Source of the DNA: Christensenellaceae bacterium
Lineage (GTDB): Bacteria > Bacillota > Clostridia > Christensenellales > Borkfalkiaceae
Assembly: GCA_045536025.1 (NCBI GenBank)
Contig: JAZSMT010000034.1
Coordinates: 2,085 to 66,084 of the forward strand
DNA length: 64,000 bases
Reading direction: 5' to 3'
Below the pieces are notes generated by a model. It searched no databases. It saw nothing but the letters and a program-made list of their open reading frames with translations, and was not told the origin of the DNA. A program made the translations under genes and the position numbers. This document shows, one piece after another, positions 8,432 to 26,886 of the stretch (position 1 is the first letter of the stretch; each line of letters opens with the position of its first letter).

Positions 8432-9862
8432 ATGGATATGAAAGACGTAAACGAAGTTATCGCAATTCCCGAAAAAAGAGATTACGAGAGTGAACTTCTT
8501 AAAATTATTAAAAGCAATTTAACAAAAGCTGAGCTTAAGGATAAACTTAGCGAGTATCACGACAACGATATTGCAAAGATTTTCCCCCTTATAACACCTA
8601 GCGAAAGAAAGAAGTTATATAAGGTTTTATCCGACGAAGAGATTTCGGATATATTTGCATATTTAGAGGACGCTAACGAATACGTTTCCGAACTCGGTAA
8701 CGAAAAGCTGGCTGACATTATCGAGGAAATGGACGCCGACGACGCTATCGACCTTCTTTCCGACCTTGAAGAAGATAAACGTCAAGACATTATAACGCTT
8801 ATCGAGCCCGAGGCAAAGGCAGACATTATACTTATCGACTCCTACTTAGAGGACCAAATAGGTAGTATAATGACTACCAACTTTATTTCCATCGATAAAA
8901 ACTTTACCGTTAAGCAAGCTATGCGTTCGGTTATAAATCAAGCGGCGGAAAACGACAACATCTCTACCGTTTACGCAGTGGAGGAAGACGGGCGCTTTTA
9001 CGGCGCGATTGAGCTTAGAGATTTGGTAATCGCAAGAGATACCACCCCCCTATCCGACATTATATCGACGAGCTACCCTTATTTTTACGCGCTTGAAACG
9101 ACGGCGGAGTGCATTGAACAGCTTAAAAACTATTCGGAAGACTCAATTCCCGTACTCAATAAAGAAAACAAGCTTATAGGTGTAATAACCTCTTCCGACC
9201 TAGTTGAGGCGGTTGACGAAGTTTTAAGTGACGACTATGCTAAACTTGCAGGTCTTACCAAGGAAGAAGATTTAGACGAGCCGGTATTTAAAAGTATCGG
9301 AAAGCGCATACCTTGGCTTATAATACTTTTAATTCTCGGCGTGGGCGTTTCGGCGGTAATTCAAAGTTTTCAAACGCTAATACCCACCTCACTTATAATA
9401 CTTTATACCTTCCAAAGCTTAATACTCGGTATGAGTGGTAACGCAGGCACACAAAGCCTAGCAGTAACGGTAAGGGTTTTGAGCGACGAGGAGCTTGACC
9501 GCAAGCAAAAGTTTAAGTTTATACTTAAAGAACTGCGCGTGGGATTTATGAACGGGCTTATCGTAGGAACACTTGCCTTTTTGATAATAGGAATTTACGT
9601 TCAATTCTTTGAGCCTACGTTCGTATCAAACTTTGGCGTATCGGGCTTTGCAGTATCAGCGTGTATAGGTATATCGCTACTTTTATCAATGGTGCTCGCA
9701 GGGCTTGACGGAACGCTTATTCCCATAATATTTAAAAAGATAGGCATTGACCCCGCTGTTGCATCAGGACCGCTAATTACCACGATAAACGATTTACTTG
9801 CCGTAATTATTTATTATAGCGTATCAATATTGATGCTAGTAACCCTACTCGGAATTGCATAA
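8432..9862 (+). CDS. mgtE: Magnesium transporter MgtE
   Basis: 476 aa: acidic N domain, CBS pair, C-terminal 5-TM domain with the GNAGTQS motif. Confidence 0.9.
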   Translation: MDMKDVNEVIAIPEKRDYESELLKIIKSNLTKAELKDKLSEYHDNDIAKIFPLITPSERKKLYKVLSDEEISDIFAYLEDANEYVSELGNEKLADIIEEMDADDAIDLLSDLEEDKRQDIITLIEPEAKADIILIDSYLEDQIGSIMTTNFISIDKNFTVKQAMRSVINQAAENDNISTVYAVEEDGRFYGAIELRDLVIARDTTPLSDIISTSYPYFYALETTAECIEQLKNYSEDSIPVLNKENKLIGVITSSDLVEAVDEVLSDDYAKLAGLTKEEDLDEPVFKSIGKRIPWLIILLILGVGVSAVIQSFQTLIPTSLIILYTFQSLILGMSGNAGTQSLAVTVRVLSDEELDRKQKFKFILKELRVGFMNGLIVGTLAFLIIGIYVQFFEPTFVSNFGVSGFAVSACIGISLLLSMVLAGLDGTLIPIIFKKIGIDPAVASGPLITTINDLLAVIIYYSVSILMLVTLLGIA

Positions 9863-9915
9863 AAAAAGCACGCTTTTCATATGGTTTTCCCTATAAGGAA
9901 TTTTTAGATATTATA

Positions 9916-9950
9916 AAAGGATAGCAAAATTTTGCTATCCTTTATCTTTT
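9916..9950 (+). terminator. Intrinsic terminator after mgtE
   Basis: AAAGGATAGCAA/TTGCTATCCTTT stem followed by a T-rich tract. Confidence 0.7.
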
Positions 9951-10036
9951 GCTTGGCAAAAACACACGACTTTCTTTTATAAGTATAGTGTACTATATTA
10001 ATCGCAAAATGAAAAGCGACTCCCTATTGTTTTCAT

Positions 10037-10522
10037 TTATGCTGGATATATAGTATAGGCTTTATCAATAAGATAATCAGCATATATATCATCTTCGTCA
10101 TAAATGTTAAGCGTAAATTTTATCTTATTTACTTGAGTGATTCCTAATTCTTCAAAATCAGACTCAAAAAAACTTATATGTCCAACAGCTTTGCTTCCTG
10201 GCGTAACACTTTTTGCCCAGAACGGATCACACATGTAATCATTAACTGAAACATCATCTAAAGAAAACATCAAATTTTTATTAGTTTTATTTTCTAAGGA
10301 TACATTAAGTGTGTATCCATAAAATCCGTTTGGATTAACACCAGTTATTTTAAATAAGCAATTTTCATCATCAACGATTATTTGAGTATATGAGTTTTGC
10401 TCTCCACCTATGTTATTGTTATTTCCACTTGTCGAATTATCTGTGGAATCAAAACAACCTACAAATGAAAAGCACATAGCCAAAACAAGAATTATAAAAA
10501 ATAGTTTACTTAATTTTTTCAT
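10037..10522 (-). CDS. Putative lipoprotein, function unknown
   Basis: Start moved to MKKLSKLFFIILVLAMCFSFVGC (lipobox; GGAGG 5 nt upstream). No family recognised. Confidence 0.6.
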   Translation of the reverse strand: MKKLSKLFFIILVLAMCFSFVGCFDSTDNSTSGNNNNIGGEQNSYTQIIVDDENCLFKITGVNPNGFYGYTLNVSLENKTNKNLMFSLDDVSVNDYMCDPFWAKSVTPGSKAVGHISFFESDFEELGITQVNKIKFTLNIYDEDDIYADYLIDKAYTIYPA

Positions 10523-10754
10523 TTCATCCTCCATTAAAAAAGTGCGCCAACCGAAGTTAACGCACCGAAAAATGCGAAACTCCAAGTTGTCGCCAAACGA
10601 ACTTTATCGCAAGTATAAGCATAGCCATACCACCGAACGGGAGTCGCACTTTTACCAAATGGATTATGTTCGATTAGTATGACAAAATAGGGGCATAATT
10701 ATCCTATAAAAAAAGAAACTACGCCTATTTGCGACAATATTAAGTTCGTTTGGC
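10523..10754 (-). promoter_or_regulatory. ~230-nt structured leader with terminator/antiterminator upstream of the lipoprotein gene
   Basis: 13-bp long-range helix (10742-10754 with 10592-10604). 10-bp UUCG-tetraloop hairpin plus U6 at 10536-10565, directly before the Shine-Dalgarno. Competing CGCA/UGCG pairing. Confidence 0.55.
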
Positions 10755-10760
10755 ATTATT

Positions 10761-10789
10761 ATTTTAACACATATGAAAAGATTAATCAA
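10761..10789 (-). promoter_or_regulatory. sigma-A type promoter of the lipoprotein leader
   Basis: Minus-sense TTGATT, 17 nt, TAAAAT. Predicted start coincides with the 5' arm of the leader helix. Confidence 0.5.
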
Positions 10790-10810
10790 GCAGTTTTATG
10801 TGGACAAAAG

Positions 10811-10840
10811 AAAACTCGACTTGAACAAAGTCGAGTTTTA
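10811..10840. terminator. Bidirectional terminator hairpin
   Basis: AAAACTCGAC-loop-GTCGAGTTTT. Confidence 0.65.
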
Positions 10841-10844
10841 TAAG

Positions 10845-11198
10845 TTATTTTTTCTGCTTTAATGTTTTACACGAAGAAATCAACATTTTCCGTATAGCGC
10901 CACAATCGTTATTCAGTTTTTTATATTGATTTTCTTCTAAATATCCTGTTTCAGATAGCAATTCTAACTAATATTCGCTTTCAAAGCATTCTTTTAACGC
11001 TATTTCAAGTTTTGAAATAAAGTCAGCCGTTCCTTGTGCATATTGAGCTTCGTGGATATTTGCACCAATACTTGTTCCGGAACGCAATAATTGATTAGTC
11101 AATACACTTTCTTTGTTATTAGATTTAATTTCTTTAGTTATGTAAACTATATTTTTAGCAAACTCTTTTGCTTTTTCTCTTAAGACACTTTCACTCAT
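10845..11198 (-). pseudogene. Four-helix-bundle protein (23S rRNA IVS protein / Avd family) interrupted by an in-frame TAG
   Basis: The 76-aa ORF stops at TAG (10968-10970), exactly where the intact paralog (26323-26673) has Trp in ...EYWLEL. The frame continues LELLSETGYLEENQYKKLNNDCGAIRKMLISSCKTLKQKK to TAA at 10845-10847. Confidence 0.8.
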
Positions 11199-11234
11199 AA
11201 GTTAATTATAAAATATTACAAATTTTAAGTAAAG

Positions 11235-11408
11235 TGATATTGTTTGCACAGCAAACAGTTATATTTTTAGACTTAATCTAAAAGTTATATTTTGGCTACA
11301 GCCAAAGTTATATTAAATAAATCCACAACTTACCGTAGGCAAATATCACTGCCGATAGGCAATATCACTCGTCGCTAGACGAATATCACAAATCCGCTTG
11401 CGGATTTA
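11235..11408 (-). repeat. Hairpin array, heptamer type (GTGATAT/GTTATAT block then ATATCAC block)
   Basis: Plus strand: 4 x GT(G/T)ATAT and 3 x ATATCAC. Each is followed by a different perfect hairpin (TGTTTGC/GCAAACA, TTTTAGA/TCTAAAA, TTTGGC/GCCAAA, TGCC/GGCA, TCGTC/GACGA, AAATCCGC/GCGGATTT). Confidence 0.8.
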
Positions 11409-11461
11409 TTTAGTTGCCGAACCCCTTGCAGGGACTCGGCTAAAGCGTGCTTTTAATTTTA

Positions 11462-12325
11462 TTATTTGTTTTGACCGTTAGCTAGTTCGGCTTTAACTTT
11501 TAAAGGCGTTTGGGGTAAAACGAAGATATCTTGAATACTTTTTGAGTCGGTTATCTTTTTATATTTTGCGTAATCAACAGCGTCCTCATTGTCGTATTCC
11601 ATTTTTTCATACTCGCCGTCTTCGTCTTTGCTGTGATAATAAGATTCGCCGTCGAAATAATACTCAAAATCGGTATTAGCAACTAACTTACCGTCCTCTT
11701 CATTTCTATCGCCAACGTATTTTGCACGATAATAACTTTCGTCGTAACTAGCAGTGTCAATCAAAGCTTCTTGCAAAAGTTCAACCACCCCGTCGTTAAT
11801 ATAACCGAATACGCAGAACTTATCGTTAGTGAAAACTCCACTATCGGTTAAAACGATTGCAAAGCTTGCCTTTGCCGTATCGTATTTAGGCTCGCCGATT
11901 TCCGAGTCAAACTCTCTTATCATAACGAGCGCACCAGCTCTTACTTTAAGCTTAGACTCTCTGCCCGCAGAGGTAAACTCACCCTTTAAACCTTCGCCGG
12001 TATAAGCTTTTTGAACGTAATCTTCCGCAAAAGTATATCCACCAACCACTAAATAGTCTTGTTGTTTAGAAAGTACGAGTGCAGTATCGTTATAAAAACC
12101 GCTTTCTATAAGGTCGATAACCCTATCACACGTTTTGGGCGCAAAAGTTTTATATAAAGATAAAGTGGAATTGATAGTAGTAGTTCCACCGTCCACCTTA
12201 TAAGAAATGTCAAACTTCACGTCTTGAATAACGCTACCGTTTTTAGTGTAAGTGGTGCAAGCAGTCATAGAAAAGGTTAAAACCGCAATAACGAAAACCG
12301 CAAGCGCTTTAATAAATTTTTTCAT
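11462..12325 (-). CDS. Lipoprotein with cyclophilin-like (PPIase) region
   Basis: Lipobox FSMTAC. Segment CDRVIDLIESGFYNDT...VVGGY resembles the cyclophilin fold signature. Acidic C-terminal region. Confidence 0.45.
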   Translation of the reverse strand: MKKFIKALAVFVIAVLTFSMTACTTYTKNGSVIQDVKFDISYKVDGGTTTINSTLSLYKTFAPKTCDRVIDLIESGFYNDTALVLSKQQDYLVVGGYTFAEDYVQKAYTGEGLKGEFTSAGRESKLKVRAGALVMIREFDSEIGEPKYDTAKASFAIVLTDSGVFTNDKFCVFGYINDGVVELLQEALIDTASYDESYYRAKYVGDRNEEDGKLVANTDFEYYFDGESYYHSKDEDGEYEKMEYDNEDAVDYAKYKKITDSKSIQDIFVLPQTPLKVKAELANGQNK

Positions 12326-16203: not shown

Positions 16204-16330
16204 TTTTAAGACGCTAGAAACAAGTATAACGAGGCTCACGAAAAAGGTGAGATTGGATAGACTTTTTTGGTCATCCAAGTCCGACTTTTGAGTAGAAACA
16301 AAGTTATACGCCGTTTATAACGTTTTAAAA
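16204..16330 (+). repeat. Structured interspersed element, copy A
   Basis: Contains the blocks TTTTAAGACGCTAG, GAGGCTCAC, ATAGAC-T6-GGTCAT, GTAGAAAC and ATAACGTTTTAAAA. Stems GTATAAC/GTTATAC and TTGGAT/ATCCAA. Confidence 0.8.
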
Positions 16331-16332
16331 AT

Positions 16333-16361
16333 AAAAAAAGCATAGATCAACCCTATGCTTT
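16333..16361 (-). terminator. Intrinsic terminator of the rplJL transcript
   Basis: Minus-sense AAAGCAUAG-loop-CUAUGCUUU followed by U7. Confidence 0.7.
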
Positions 16362-16394
16362 AATTATCTAACGCAAAGCTTATACAAAGCTCTA

Positions 16395-16523
16395 TTTTAA
16401 GCCGGTAGTTTGGGTATTAGACGAGGCTCACGCAAGACGATAAGCAGAGATAGACCTTTTTGGTCATCGAGGTTTATCGGCTAAGTAGAAACGAAGTATA
16501 ATGCCCGAAATAGTGGCTTAAAA
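16395..16523 (+). repeat. Structured interspersed element, copy B (ends at the base before the rplL stop codon)
   Basis: Same blocks as copy A. Outer stem TTTTAAGCC/GGCTTAAAA, inner stem TTTGGGTATTA/TAATGCCCGAA. 107 nt identical to copy C. Confidence 0.85.
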
Positions 16524-26254: not shown

Positions 26255-26326
26255 ATTTAACCTTGCTAAGCAAGATTTCATCGCGTAGCGATTTCATCTA
26301 CGGCAGTAGATTTATTCCGCATTTAG
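26255..26326. repeat. 72-bp direct repeat, copy 1
   Basis: Identical to 26808-26879. Contains hairpins CTTGC/GCAAG, ATCGC/GCGAT, ATCTAC/GTAGAT and a half hairpin TCCGC. Also contains the TAA stop of the 4HB ORF. Confidence 0.95.
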
Positions 26327-26673
26327 TTTTGCATATTTTCCTTTGTTGTATTAATAGAAGAAATGAGCATTCTTCTAATTGAACCACAATCGTGTAAGAG
26401 TTTTTTTATGATATCATCAATAAAAATCTCTGACTTTTTTACAAGTTCAAGCCAATATTCTGTTTCATAACACTCTTTAAGCGCAATCTGCAATTTCGAA
26501 ACAAAATCCGCTTTGCTGTGAGCGTATTTTGCCTCTCTTATATTTGCTCCGATAGACGTTGCACTACGTTCTAATTGATTAACAAGAGAATAATGCCCCT
26601 TAATACCATCGGTCATCCTTAATATTTCGACTGCAAAGTCCATAGATAAATCTACAAGTTTGTTTTCTGCCAT
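26323..26673 (-). CDS. Four-helix-bundle protein (23S rRNA intervening-sequence protein / DGR Avd family)
   Basis: 116 aa. Motifs QLERSATSIGANIREAKYAHSKADFVSKLQIALKECYETEYWLEL are typical of this family (recalled, not searched). Confidence 0.75.
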   Translation of the reverse strand: MAENKLVDLSMDFAVEILRMTDGIKGHYSLVNQLERSATSIGANIREAKYAHSKADFVSKLQIALKECYETEYWLELVKKSEIFIDDIIKKLLHDCGSIRRMLISSINTTKENMQN

Positions 26674-26721
26674 AACAATCTCCTTTAATTATTTATAACA
26701 TAGAACCAAAGAAAAATCAAT

Positions 26722-26886
26722 AATGAAATCACCTATGGTGATGAAATCCAAACTTGTTTGGATGAAATCTTTAGCCTACGGCTTCAGATGAAATTAAATC
26801 CGCTAGCATTTAACCTTGCTAAGCAAGATTTCATCGCGTAGCGATTTCATCTACGGCAGTAGATTTATTCCGCATTTAGCGGATTT
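26722..26886 (-). repeat. Hairpin array, GATGAAATC / GATTTCATC type
   Basis: Plus strand: hairpins 26728-42, 26746-63 and 26767-89 joined by GAA; centre hairpin 26796-811; hairpins 26813-29, 26833-45 and 26849-64 joined by TTC; then 26869-83. All stems close with ATC...GAT and all variable parts are self-complementary. Confidence 0.85.
26808..26879. repeat. 72-bp direct repeat, copy 2
   Basis: Identical to 26255-26326. Confidence 0.95.

Follow-up and report, generated by a model that had tools for sequence, protein, structure and literature searches.

The 64-kb window analysed here (by which we mean the whole stretch of DNA, 64,000 nucleotides) contains a gene of the PF05635 family preceded by an array in which a constant heptamer alternates with small hairpins. 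The locus raises the question of what such an array is and how it relates to the gene beside it: a regulatory region of that gene, a structured RNA, or part of something larger that carries both.

The array and the Gut-1 motif

The array extends from 11234 to 11416 and is made of seven GTKATAT/ATATCAC heptamers interleaved with perfect hairpins, all of its spacers being hairpins of 4-8 perfect pairs (Table 1). On the plus strand, GTGATAT starts at 11234, GTTATAT at 11258, 11284 and 11307, and ATATCAC at 11343, 11362 and 11383. A first model-made inspection of the DNA (hereafter, the sequence-only reading) had named the same heptamers, with every start placed one base too high; its description of two inverted blocks of heptamers and hairpins upstream of the gene is borne out by these positions and by the hairpins themselves. 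The heptamers follow one another at start-to-start distances of 19, 21, 23, 24 and 26 bp, and a gap of 35 nt separates the array from the ATG (in gene sense, the last heptamer ends at 11234 and the ATG lies at 11198). The clustering of the heptamers speaks for a genuine array: seven fall within 180 nt, compared to 27 in the whole 64-kb window, and 200 shuffles of the window never placed more than four in any 180 nt. The array folds far more stably than shuffled sequences, with z = -5.4 on each strand.

Table 1. Features of the insertion and of the terminator around it (positions in the window; gene sense is the minus strand).
Feature	Position	Strand	Description
Half of split intrinsic (bidirectional) terminator	9864..9876	.	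AAAAGCACGCTTT; just past the mgtE stop (9860-9862); complementary to 11442-11454
Right end of insertion	9877..9905	-	TIR-like core TTCCCTATAAGGAA, gene sense AAAAATTCCTTATAGGGAA
Internal bidirectional terminator-like hairpin	9916..9943	.	12 pairs; counterpart in the C9 copy
Cargo gene, 161-aa lipoprotein	10037..10522	-	MKKLSK...FVGC lipobox; no Pfam family
Cargo promoter and structured leader	10523..10789	-	TTGATT-17-TAAAAT; leader of ~230 nt with its own terminator; kept in the C9 copy
Terminator hairpin after PF05635 gene	10811..10839	-	12 pairs, then a T-run; kept in the C9 copy
PF05635/TIGR02436 four-helix-bundle gene	10845..11198	-	Pseudogene; TGG to TAG at 10968-10970
Promoter	11205..11233	-	Sigma-70-type TTTACT-17-TATAAT, 10/12 matches; same layout in the C9 copy
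Gene-proximal (mirror) block	11234..11313	-	Four heptamers, gene sense ATATCAC and three ATATAAC, interleaved with three 7-bp hairpins
Array centre	11314..11342	-	GGATTTATTTA, distal complement of the Gut-1 5' arm, and central hairpin TTGCC-TAC-GGTAA
Distal block	11338..11416	-	Rfam Gut-1 match; three hairpins with GUGAUAU between them
Array hairpin stems			TGTTTGC/GCAAACA, TTTTAGA/TCTAAAA, TTTGGCT/AGCCAAA, TGCC/GGCA, TCGTC/GACGA, AAATCCGC/GCGGATTT
Hairpin-0	11416..11440	-	Gene sense GCCGAGTCCCTGCAAGGGGTTCGGC; left end of insertion; conserved AGGGRWT core
Other terminator half	11442..11454	.	AAAGCGTGCTTTT; 7 nt downstream of the convergent-gene stop
Convergent gene	11462-12325	-	

The distal block aligns with the Rfam family Gut-1 (RF01706) over the full length of the model (positions 1-77), scoring 49.6 bits (E 3.1e-8) against a gathering score of 50, and it carries GUGAUAU linkers where the consensus reads GUGAAAU. 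Copies of the same class elsewhere in the genome score 54.7 and 53.2 bits and a canonical copy 74.9 bits, the range for the other copies in the genome being 53-75 bits. In the array located at 26.7 kb of the window, whose heptamer word is GATGAAATC, both blocks match the model, one on each strand. The sequence-only reading had considered the two arrays to be built on different constant linkers; instead, both match one known family, GUGAUAU being a one-base variant of GUGAAAU. The hairpin that it saw in both arrays (the AAATCCGC/GCGGATTT type) is real and corresponds to helix P1 of the Gut-1 model. Three hairpins parted by a GUGAAAU-type linker, with covarying stems, are all present here, and by these matches we regard the array as a diverged mirror pair of Gut-1 blocks. 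A scan of the array and the cargo leader against Rfam gave no credible family other than Gut-1, as three further families matched only at E 0.4-0.8, far under their gathering scores.

Gut-1 was described as a non-coding RNA candidate from gut metagenomes, graded as a likely RNA and reported without any link to a gene (Weinberg et al. 2010, PMC2864571). The published motif shares with the window array the three short hairpins parted by a constant heptamer, as well as the gut habitat, and differs in the linker, which is GUGAAAU there and GUGAUAU/GUUAUAU here. More importantly, it was published as a single block with no gene association, whereas the blocks found here are always one half of a mirror pair and stand beside PF05635 genes or inside an insertion in a terminator loop, at about 25 per genome. 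Our literature search for a link between Gut-1 and PF05635, or for MITEs targeting terminator loops, found none.

The stems were compared in an alignment of the distal half of the array from 34 distinct copies. In this alignment, 98.7% of stem cells are paired, compared to at most 51% in slid-register controls, and ten stem pairs with changes on both sides account for 83 cells versus 28 +/- 4 in shuffles (none of 500 reached 83). Such covariation shows that the array stems evolve under a pairing constraint. The outer stem of hairpin-0 also covaries between copies (GCCGA/TCGGC, GTCGC/GCGAC, GTCGA/TCGAC), and of 60 distinct inter-linker segments in the mirror block of the copies, 48 look like hairpins. 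The centre, GGATTTATTTA, complements the 5' arm of the Gut-1 block in copies; RNAalifold pairs the two over 11 bp, and the three partner words switch together between array classes. We also considered a nested pairing of distal with proximal linkers, which would fold the array into a stack of four-way junctions, and rejected it: the variable third base of the heptamer (G/T versus C/A) shows no covariation among the copies, whichever nested register is tried, and the window array itself sets three GTGATAT opposite three ATATAAC. Linker-linker pairing is therefore not supported here, although it may occur in lineages with invariant words. Templated repair of quasi-palindromes, it should be added, could imitate compensatory change.

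An insertion inside a split terminator and its dispersed relatives

The sequence-only reading did not see that the array is the end of a larger insertion in a terminator. The window copy forms the left end of a 1,565-bp insertion, 9877-11441, in the loop of a bidirectional terminator that lies between mgtE and a convergent gene; the partner halves of this terminator lie at 9864-9876 and 11442-11454, and thus everything between them is inserted. In the congener G014, the sequences that flank the window copy join directly over an ordinary hairpin, AAAAACCTTGCCA-CG-TGGCAAGGTTTTT, and the same site is also empty, with the terminator intact, in G006 and G004. In a further congener, G009, this terminator is occupied by a short copy that points the other way. 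A paralogous copy on contig C9 of the same genome has the same build, sits inside a different split terminator and carries, at the position of the window lipoprotein, a different, Ltp-type lipoprotein (PF07553). The start of the cargo leader is also conserved in copies of two congeners (G003 and G047) that carry other cargo. The insertion has a right end (...AAAATYCCCTWWWAGGRA...) that is also found at the end of 12 other copies; by a manual count, about 14 of 21 bases agree between it and hairpin-0 in inverted orientation, which makes an imperfect repeat with the core TYCCTAYAAGGGAWT.

The PF05635 gene of the insertion scores 102.3 bits with the PF05635 profile when its TAG is read as W and 97.3 bits in the six-frame translation (cut-off 33.8), and 113 bits with TIGR02436 (cut-off 24). 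Its reading frame is not intact, as the in-frame TAG at 10968-10970 replaces a tryptophan that is invariant in the paralogs; stops also occur inside the genes of the congeners G049 and G048. The paralog on C9 is intact, encodes 117 aa and matches PDB 2RLD (E 6e-33), the nearest solved structure, for which five chains are deposited; its array is of the same class, with the same heptamer words, as that of the window. In the window promoter, 6 nt separate the -10 box from the ATG, and no Shine-Dalgarno sequence is present, which leads us to predict a leaderless mRNA. The array, treated in the sequence-only reading as a possible 5' UTR, is not one for the window gene, since a good promoter, TTTACT-17-TATAAT, sits between array and ATG. 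At loci of the TGAATT class, a TTGCAA-17-TATAAT promoter lies directly upstream of the array, which then falls in the predicted 5' UTR, with about 20 nt from the last linker to the ATG. The order of array and promoter is thus not conserved.

The genome, 1.29 Mb in size, contains 28 Gut-1 matches (E < 1e-3), or about 25-28 arrays, compared to three PF05635 genes. About 30 copies follow one plan, which reads, in order, hairpin-0 (GCCGAGTCCCTACAAGGGATTCGGC or GTCGCTCTTCCC..GCGAC), the Gut-1 block, the centre GGATTTATTTA, the mirror block of ATATAAC and hairpins, a long hairpin with T-runs and the end AAAATYCCCTWWWAGGRA. Most members of the family are short copies of 312-372 nt (about 330) without any gene. 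Identity between the two long copies of the genome is 83% for the first ~900 nt and 75% for the final 100 nt; the cargo in between is unrelated. Short and long copies have their left 130-170 nt in common at 83-96% identity; their right ends also align, although blastn-short tied only an 18-nt arm of the long hairpin. Among ten long copies inspected in the genus, the PF05635 gene is the only constant ORF. What follows it may be nothing at all, various lipoproteins (one of the Ltp type), an EcoRI-type adenine methyltransferase, a SAM methyltransferase or small ORFs; the case without cargo is locus L018, where the PF05635 gene stands alone between the terminator halves AAAAATAAGGTCAAATC and GATTTGACCTTTATTTTT.

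The flanks of the copies tell the same story as those of the window insertion. In 12 of 14 copies, an A-run with 6-9 specific bases on one side meets the exact complement with a T-run on the other; these flanks differ from copy to copy, and mismatched left and right flanks do not pair. Junctions are A/T-rich (TAA, ATA or TTA on both sides in several copies); as the orthologous loops differ, these are at most a candidate target-site duplication. Joined flanks were searched in the genus for five of the eight short copies; for three of these (the loci on C3, C9 and C19), the search returned contiguous intact terminators, in 2-4 congeners each. These empty and occupied sites show that the family moves into terminator loops or disappears from them, and the mobile-insertion part of the explanation proposed below is well supported by them. 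Copies lie either way round beside their neighbouring genes; contexts that are co-directional, convergent or antisense-only all occur, and a lock of orientation to transcription was accordingly rejected.

As to the enzyme that might move the family, no transposase was found inside the ten long copies inspected. The genome contains no rve-type transposase, which removes an IS3-type mobiliser of the kind that serves IS1397, and a search of this 94%-complete genome for a reverse transcriptase (PF00078) gave no match. It does have three tyrosine recombinases and several copies of an IS200-like element with a Y1 transposase (Y1_Tnp fragments at two contig starts, and the end of the same element at two more). 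The end hairpin of this IS200 element, CCACGGGATAGTCCCGTGG, is unlike the ends of the family; we rejected it as the mobiliser on this ground and keep it as a weak rival.

Array and PF05635 gene as a recurrent pair

The suggestion that array and gene form a unit held up in the wider survey. All three PF05635 genes of the genome have an array upstream, and most of the 31 PF05635 loci inspected in the genus have a two-block array directly upstream. In other Clostridia, a relaxed count finds arrays upstream of 42 of 52 PF05635 genes (81%) versus 11 of 597 control windows (1.8%). A strict detector, which demands the exact word, mirror order and hairpin spacers and was applied to 80 loci from other Clostridia, finds them upstream of 40/72 genes versus 9/1,182 control windows. 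Such enrichment shows, at the level of genome comparison, a link between array and PF05635 across Clostridia. The converse, that arrays are confined to such genes, did not survive: about 25 copies in the genome are gene-less, and the genus as a whole has 290 Gut-1 matches versus 51 PF05635 genes (Spearman 0.46). Four congeners that are 92-95% complete have 8-20 intact arrays each and no PF05635 gene, which means that arrays persist without a resident protein.

At least ten linker words are in use (GTKATAT, GATGAAATC, AATGATG, ATGAATTG, GTGATGC, TTATCAT, CATGTAATC, CATATCATC, CATTATGT, ACGGTGT). Within a single array, all 7-8 linkers carry one word, and the word differs between protein clades. 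A tree of 96 proteins requires 12 changes of word class, whereas shuffled labels need 51.7 on average and never fewer than 46. This match of word and clade shows co-inheritance and is not proof of co-evolution, because relatives share labels. Words that are uniform within an array and yet specific to a clade argue, in our opinion, for a reader that acts in trans.

Explanations for the array

The explanation that we prefer is that the array is the Gut-1 mirror-pair end of a terminator-loop cassette and, at the same time, a docking place for the cassette's own protein; taken as a whole, we give it about an even chance. The array and hairpin-0 constitute the left terminal module of the insertion, and the family occurs genus-wide as three kinds of copy: long ones with PF05635 and variable cargo, the shortest gene-bearing ones with PF05635 alone, and gene-less ones of ~330 nt. 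The heptamers, held between small hairpins, would be docking sites for an oligomer of the Avd-like four-helix-bundle protein of the cassette, each protein lineage reading its own heptamer word. The array would act in a single-stranded, folded form, RNA being a slightly better candidate than ssDNA. Its complex with the protein would help the cassette to propagate or to be maintained, and autoregulation at the neighbouring promoter would be a by-product. With the window gene dead by its TAG, the intact C9 paralog could act in trans. Both the docking role and the choice of RNA over DNA are inferred. Points against the explanation are the survival of arrays in the four congeners that lack PF05635, the fact that plain co-inheritance would also make words follow clades, the shifting order of array and promoter, the balance of G.U and A.C intermediates in the distal block, and the absence of a transposase from the copies.

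An unlikely alternative, although the likeliest of the three rivals, is that the element works purely at the RNA level, as a structured non-coding RNA (3' UTR read-through, 5' UTR or sRNA) that stabilises transcripts or titrates an RNA-binding protein, its insertion polymorphism being incidental. The published rating of Gut-1 as a likely RNA (PMC2864571), the C(UUCG)G loops in the Rfam consensus, and the extension of hairpins by A-U and U.G pairs in the Gut-1 orientation only all favour such a role, as do the TGAATT-class loci, where the promoter precedes the array and the ATG follows ~20 nt past the last linker. The mirror block adds six G.T versus no A.C intermediates on the gene strand. In the distal block, however, G.U and A.C intermediates are equally common (about 12 each), so that no strand or RNA signature is found there. 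Moreover, the mirror block has the wrong sense in any single transcript, copies occur in either orientation relative to flanking genes (including that of G009), and array classes A and B have the array before the gene promoter and behind a terminator.

It is rather improbable, in our estimate, that the family is a selfish palindromic repeat of MITE or REP type moved in trans by a host enzyme, for example an IS200-type Y1 transposase or a tyrosine recombinase, with PF05635 as a frequent cargo or hitch-hiker and with hairpins kept perfect by templated quasi-palindrome repair. The predominance of gene-less copies, the imperfect terminal repeats with hairpins, the presence of a multi-copy IS200-like element and three tyrosine recombinases in the genome, the persistence of arrays in genomes without PF05635 and the decay of PF05635 itself (TAG in the window; stops in G049 and G048) are all what such a repeat would leave behind. 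Against it stand the pairing of array and gene far beyond this repeat family, with at least ten linker words and different flanks, the unlikeness of the IS200 end hairpin to the element ends, and the concerted change of all linkers in an array, which is hard to imagine without a trans-acting reader. MITE-like and REP/BIME-like repeats, as well as insertion into palindrome loops of the IS1397 type, are well-known bacterial systems. The family resembles them in that its short, non-coding, hairpin-rich copies are intergenic and multiple, have imperfect terminal repeats, are inserted at the centre of palindromes and are polymorphic for presence and absence, with empty sites in relatives. Unlike a MITE with a transposase-bearing parent, however, it has none that we could find; its long copies encode only the 117-aa four-helix-bundle protein and cargo; and the conserved part is here the linker, with variable hairpins, whereas in REP the reverse is true.

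The least probable rival, which we find very doubtful, is a double-stranded operator or iteron set on which a PF05635 oligomer, bound to heptamers 19-26 bp apart (about two helical turns), would repress the adjacent promoter, the palindromic spacers being irrelevant or cruciforms: the spacings of 19, 21, 23, 24 and 26 bp, a mirror layout natural for dsDNA sites and a last heptamer that touches the -35 box in the window, and touches or runs into it in several other lineages (L024 and L039, with CATCATTTGACA), would suit it, but duplex DNA gives selection on spacer pairing nothing to act on, ~25 arrays per genome have neither a gene nor a promoter to regulate, and some lineages lack a promoter after the array. 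The likeness to omega-repressor sites of pSM19035 (WATCACW), which the sequence-only reading had raised while itself suspecting chance, is on our comparison a coincidence. ATATCAC does fit WATCACW, and in both systems direct and inverted repeats lie upstream of a promoter; however, omega sites are contiguous heptads, whereas the heptamers here are 12-19 nt apart with hairpin spacers, the partner is PF05635, a four-helix bundle and not a ribbon-helix-helix protein, and other lineages use unrelated words (TGAATTG, ATGATG, GTTATG).

Returning to the cassette with its own docking protein, we know of no catalytic motif in PF05635. Membership in HEPN was considered and rejected, as the family is absent from the HEPN survey and an Rx4-6H motif is lacking in the protein. 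Diversity-generating retroelements (DGRs) have an accessory protein, Avd, which binds nucleic acids. PF05635 is homologous to Avd and has been treated in the literature only as Avd-like or as encoded by intervening sequences (PMC10053308). The two share the four-helix-bundle fold (PDB 4DWL for Avd), and Avd is a nucleic-acid-binding oligomer encoded beside the structured RNA on which it acts, which is the arrangement that we propose here. The DGR setting of Avd is absent, as there is neither a reverse transcriptase in the genome nor a template/variable repeat; a DGR context was rejected for the former reason.

It is tempting to suppose further that PF05635 and Gut-1-type arrays form a self-contained mobile system without a conventional transposase, integrase or reverse transcriptase, in which the oligomer would read its own heptamers on the folded array and direct or license insertion at stable hairpins, either in their apical loops or in their 3' flanks (mRNA terminators; tRNA, tmRNA and rRNA terminators; by extension, 23S rRNA helices). 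We consider this extension speculative and, on present evidence, unlikely. If true, it would explain the origin of ORF-bearing intervening sequences in rRNA. Intervening sequences of 23S rRNA with an S23p/PF05635 ORF occur in Leptospira, Coxiella and others. As in those sequences, the PF05635 ORF lies here inside an insertion at the apical loop of a stable hairpin, framed by the split stem, and the spread is sporadic and mobile-looking. The host hairpin is an mRNA terminator here and helix 25 or 45 of 23S rRNA there; the flanks of the window insertion are 3' ends of protein genes, and there is no rRNA in the window. The window element also has promoters and terminators of its own, together with Gut-1 arrays and additional cargo. 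Intervening sequences with an S23p ORF are cited in PMC10053308, and our result bears on the old question of how they come to lie within rRNA helix loops.

Gut-1 has been an orphan RNA motif since 2010, and PF05635 is a widespread orphan protein family. Array and gene recur as one unit, the unit is inserted in terminator loops, and its word tracks the protein lineage; thus, the two orphans would become one apparently mobile system that can be tested experimentally. The family also puts promoters, terminators and cargo genes inside terminators. Finally, a BLAST search with a single copy finds about 30 places in the genome, many of them at contig ends, so that these repeats break the assembly; they do the same at many places in gut Christensenellaceae-like genomes.

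Leader and array upstream of the genes of the element

Within the terminator-loop element, the lipoprotein cargo gene is preceded by a promoter and a structured leader, which ends at its 3' side in a UUCG-capped terminator. The leader is conserved in the C9 copy, a paralogous long element of the source genome. Element copies of two congeners, G003 and G047, likewise conserve its promoter and the first ~40 nt. The lipoprotein genes located 3' of this conserved leader differ among element copies, and an Rfam scan returned no match for the leader. It looks like a portable expression platform of the riboswitch or attenuator type.

For the PF05635 gene, the region 5' of the coding sequence was read for promoters in two loci with TGAATT-class arrays, L025 and L041 (congeners G035 and G003). 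Directly upstream of the first linker, L025 carries a promoter-like TTGCAA-17-TATAAT with a TG, and L041 has a weaker promoter-like TTGTAA-17-TAAAAT. The last linker is followed by the ATG after only ~20 nt that include a Shine-Dalgarno sequence, so that the entire array would be the 5' UTR in TGAATT-class loci. Across copies, the hairpin loops of the distal block are semi-conserved (C-TAAC-G, C-TATC-G, C-TAC-G; e.g., window 11350-11382), unlike those of the mirror block, and could represent a second recognition feature.

Features in the window, the source genome (G000) and locus L001
Feature	Location	Strand	Remarks
Promoter and structured leader of ~230 nt	window 10523-10789; L001 ~1295-1440	minus (window)	5' of lipoprotein cargo gene
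Second PF05635 module	window 26255-26886		linker GATGAAATC
~128-nt repeat family	window 16204-16523; further members next to the copies at C19:12471-12820 and C7:1-190		
IS200-like element	G000 C11:1-700, C12:1-700; also starts of C16 and C39		encodes Y1 transposase (MKDTNSLAHTKWNCKYHIVFAPKYRR...)

Partial, gene-less and possibly duplicated copies

A short copy occupies the orthologous mgtE terminator of congener G009 (L009 2396-2876; contig C24) in the orientation opposite to that of the window copy. This short copy lacks both the right end and the right half-stem, pointing to an independent insertion with a subsequent partial deletion. In the source genome, the highest-scoring canonical Gut-1 copy (C37:17958-18129, 74.9 bits) is a mirror pair without a gene, lying immediately 3' of a tRNA terminator and having TTCG and TTTT among its hairpin loops. 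The second PF05635 module is placed outside a loop, with a tRNA terminator on one side and another, intact terminator on the other. Here, a Gut-1 block is followed by a mirror block, the gene and a second, identical Gut-1 block, so that a direct repeat of ~70 bp flanks the PF05635 gene on both sides. Finally, the copies at C4:153-699 and C39:11421-11940 of the source genome have near-identical left half-stems and share their right flank for >150 nt; the pair is either a segmental duplication that took in the element or one locus assembled twice.

Neighbouring repeats and an IS200-like element

Some copies of array class B are adjoined by a separate family of ~128-nt repeats (…TTTAAGGCGTTAG…GACCTTTTTGGTCATCGAGG…), whose ends are unrelated to those of the terminator-loop element. 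The source genome also harbours at least 2-4 copies of an IS200-like Y1 element, cut off at contig starts. This element is inserted after TTTTTTGTTAC, beside terminators, and bears the hairpin AACCACGGGATAGTCCCGTGGTT at its left end.
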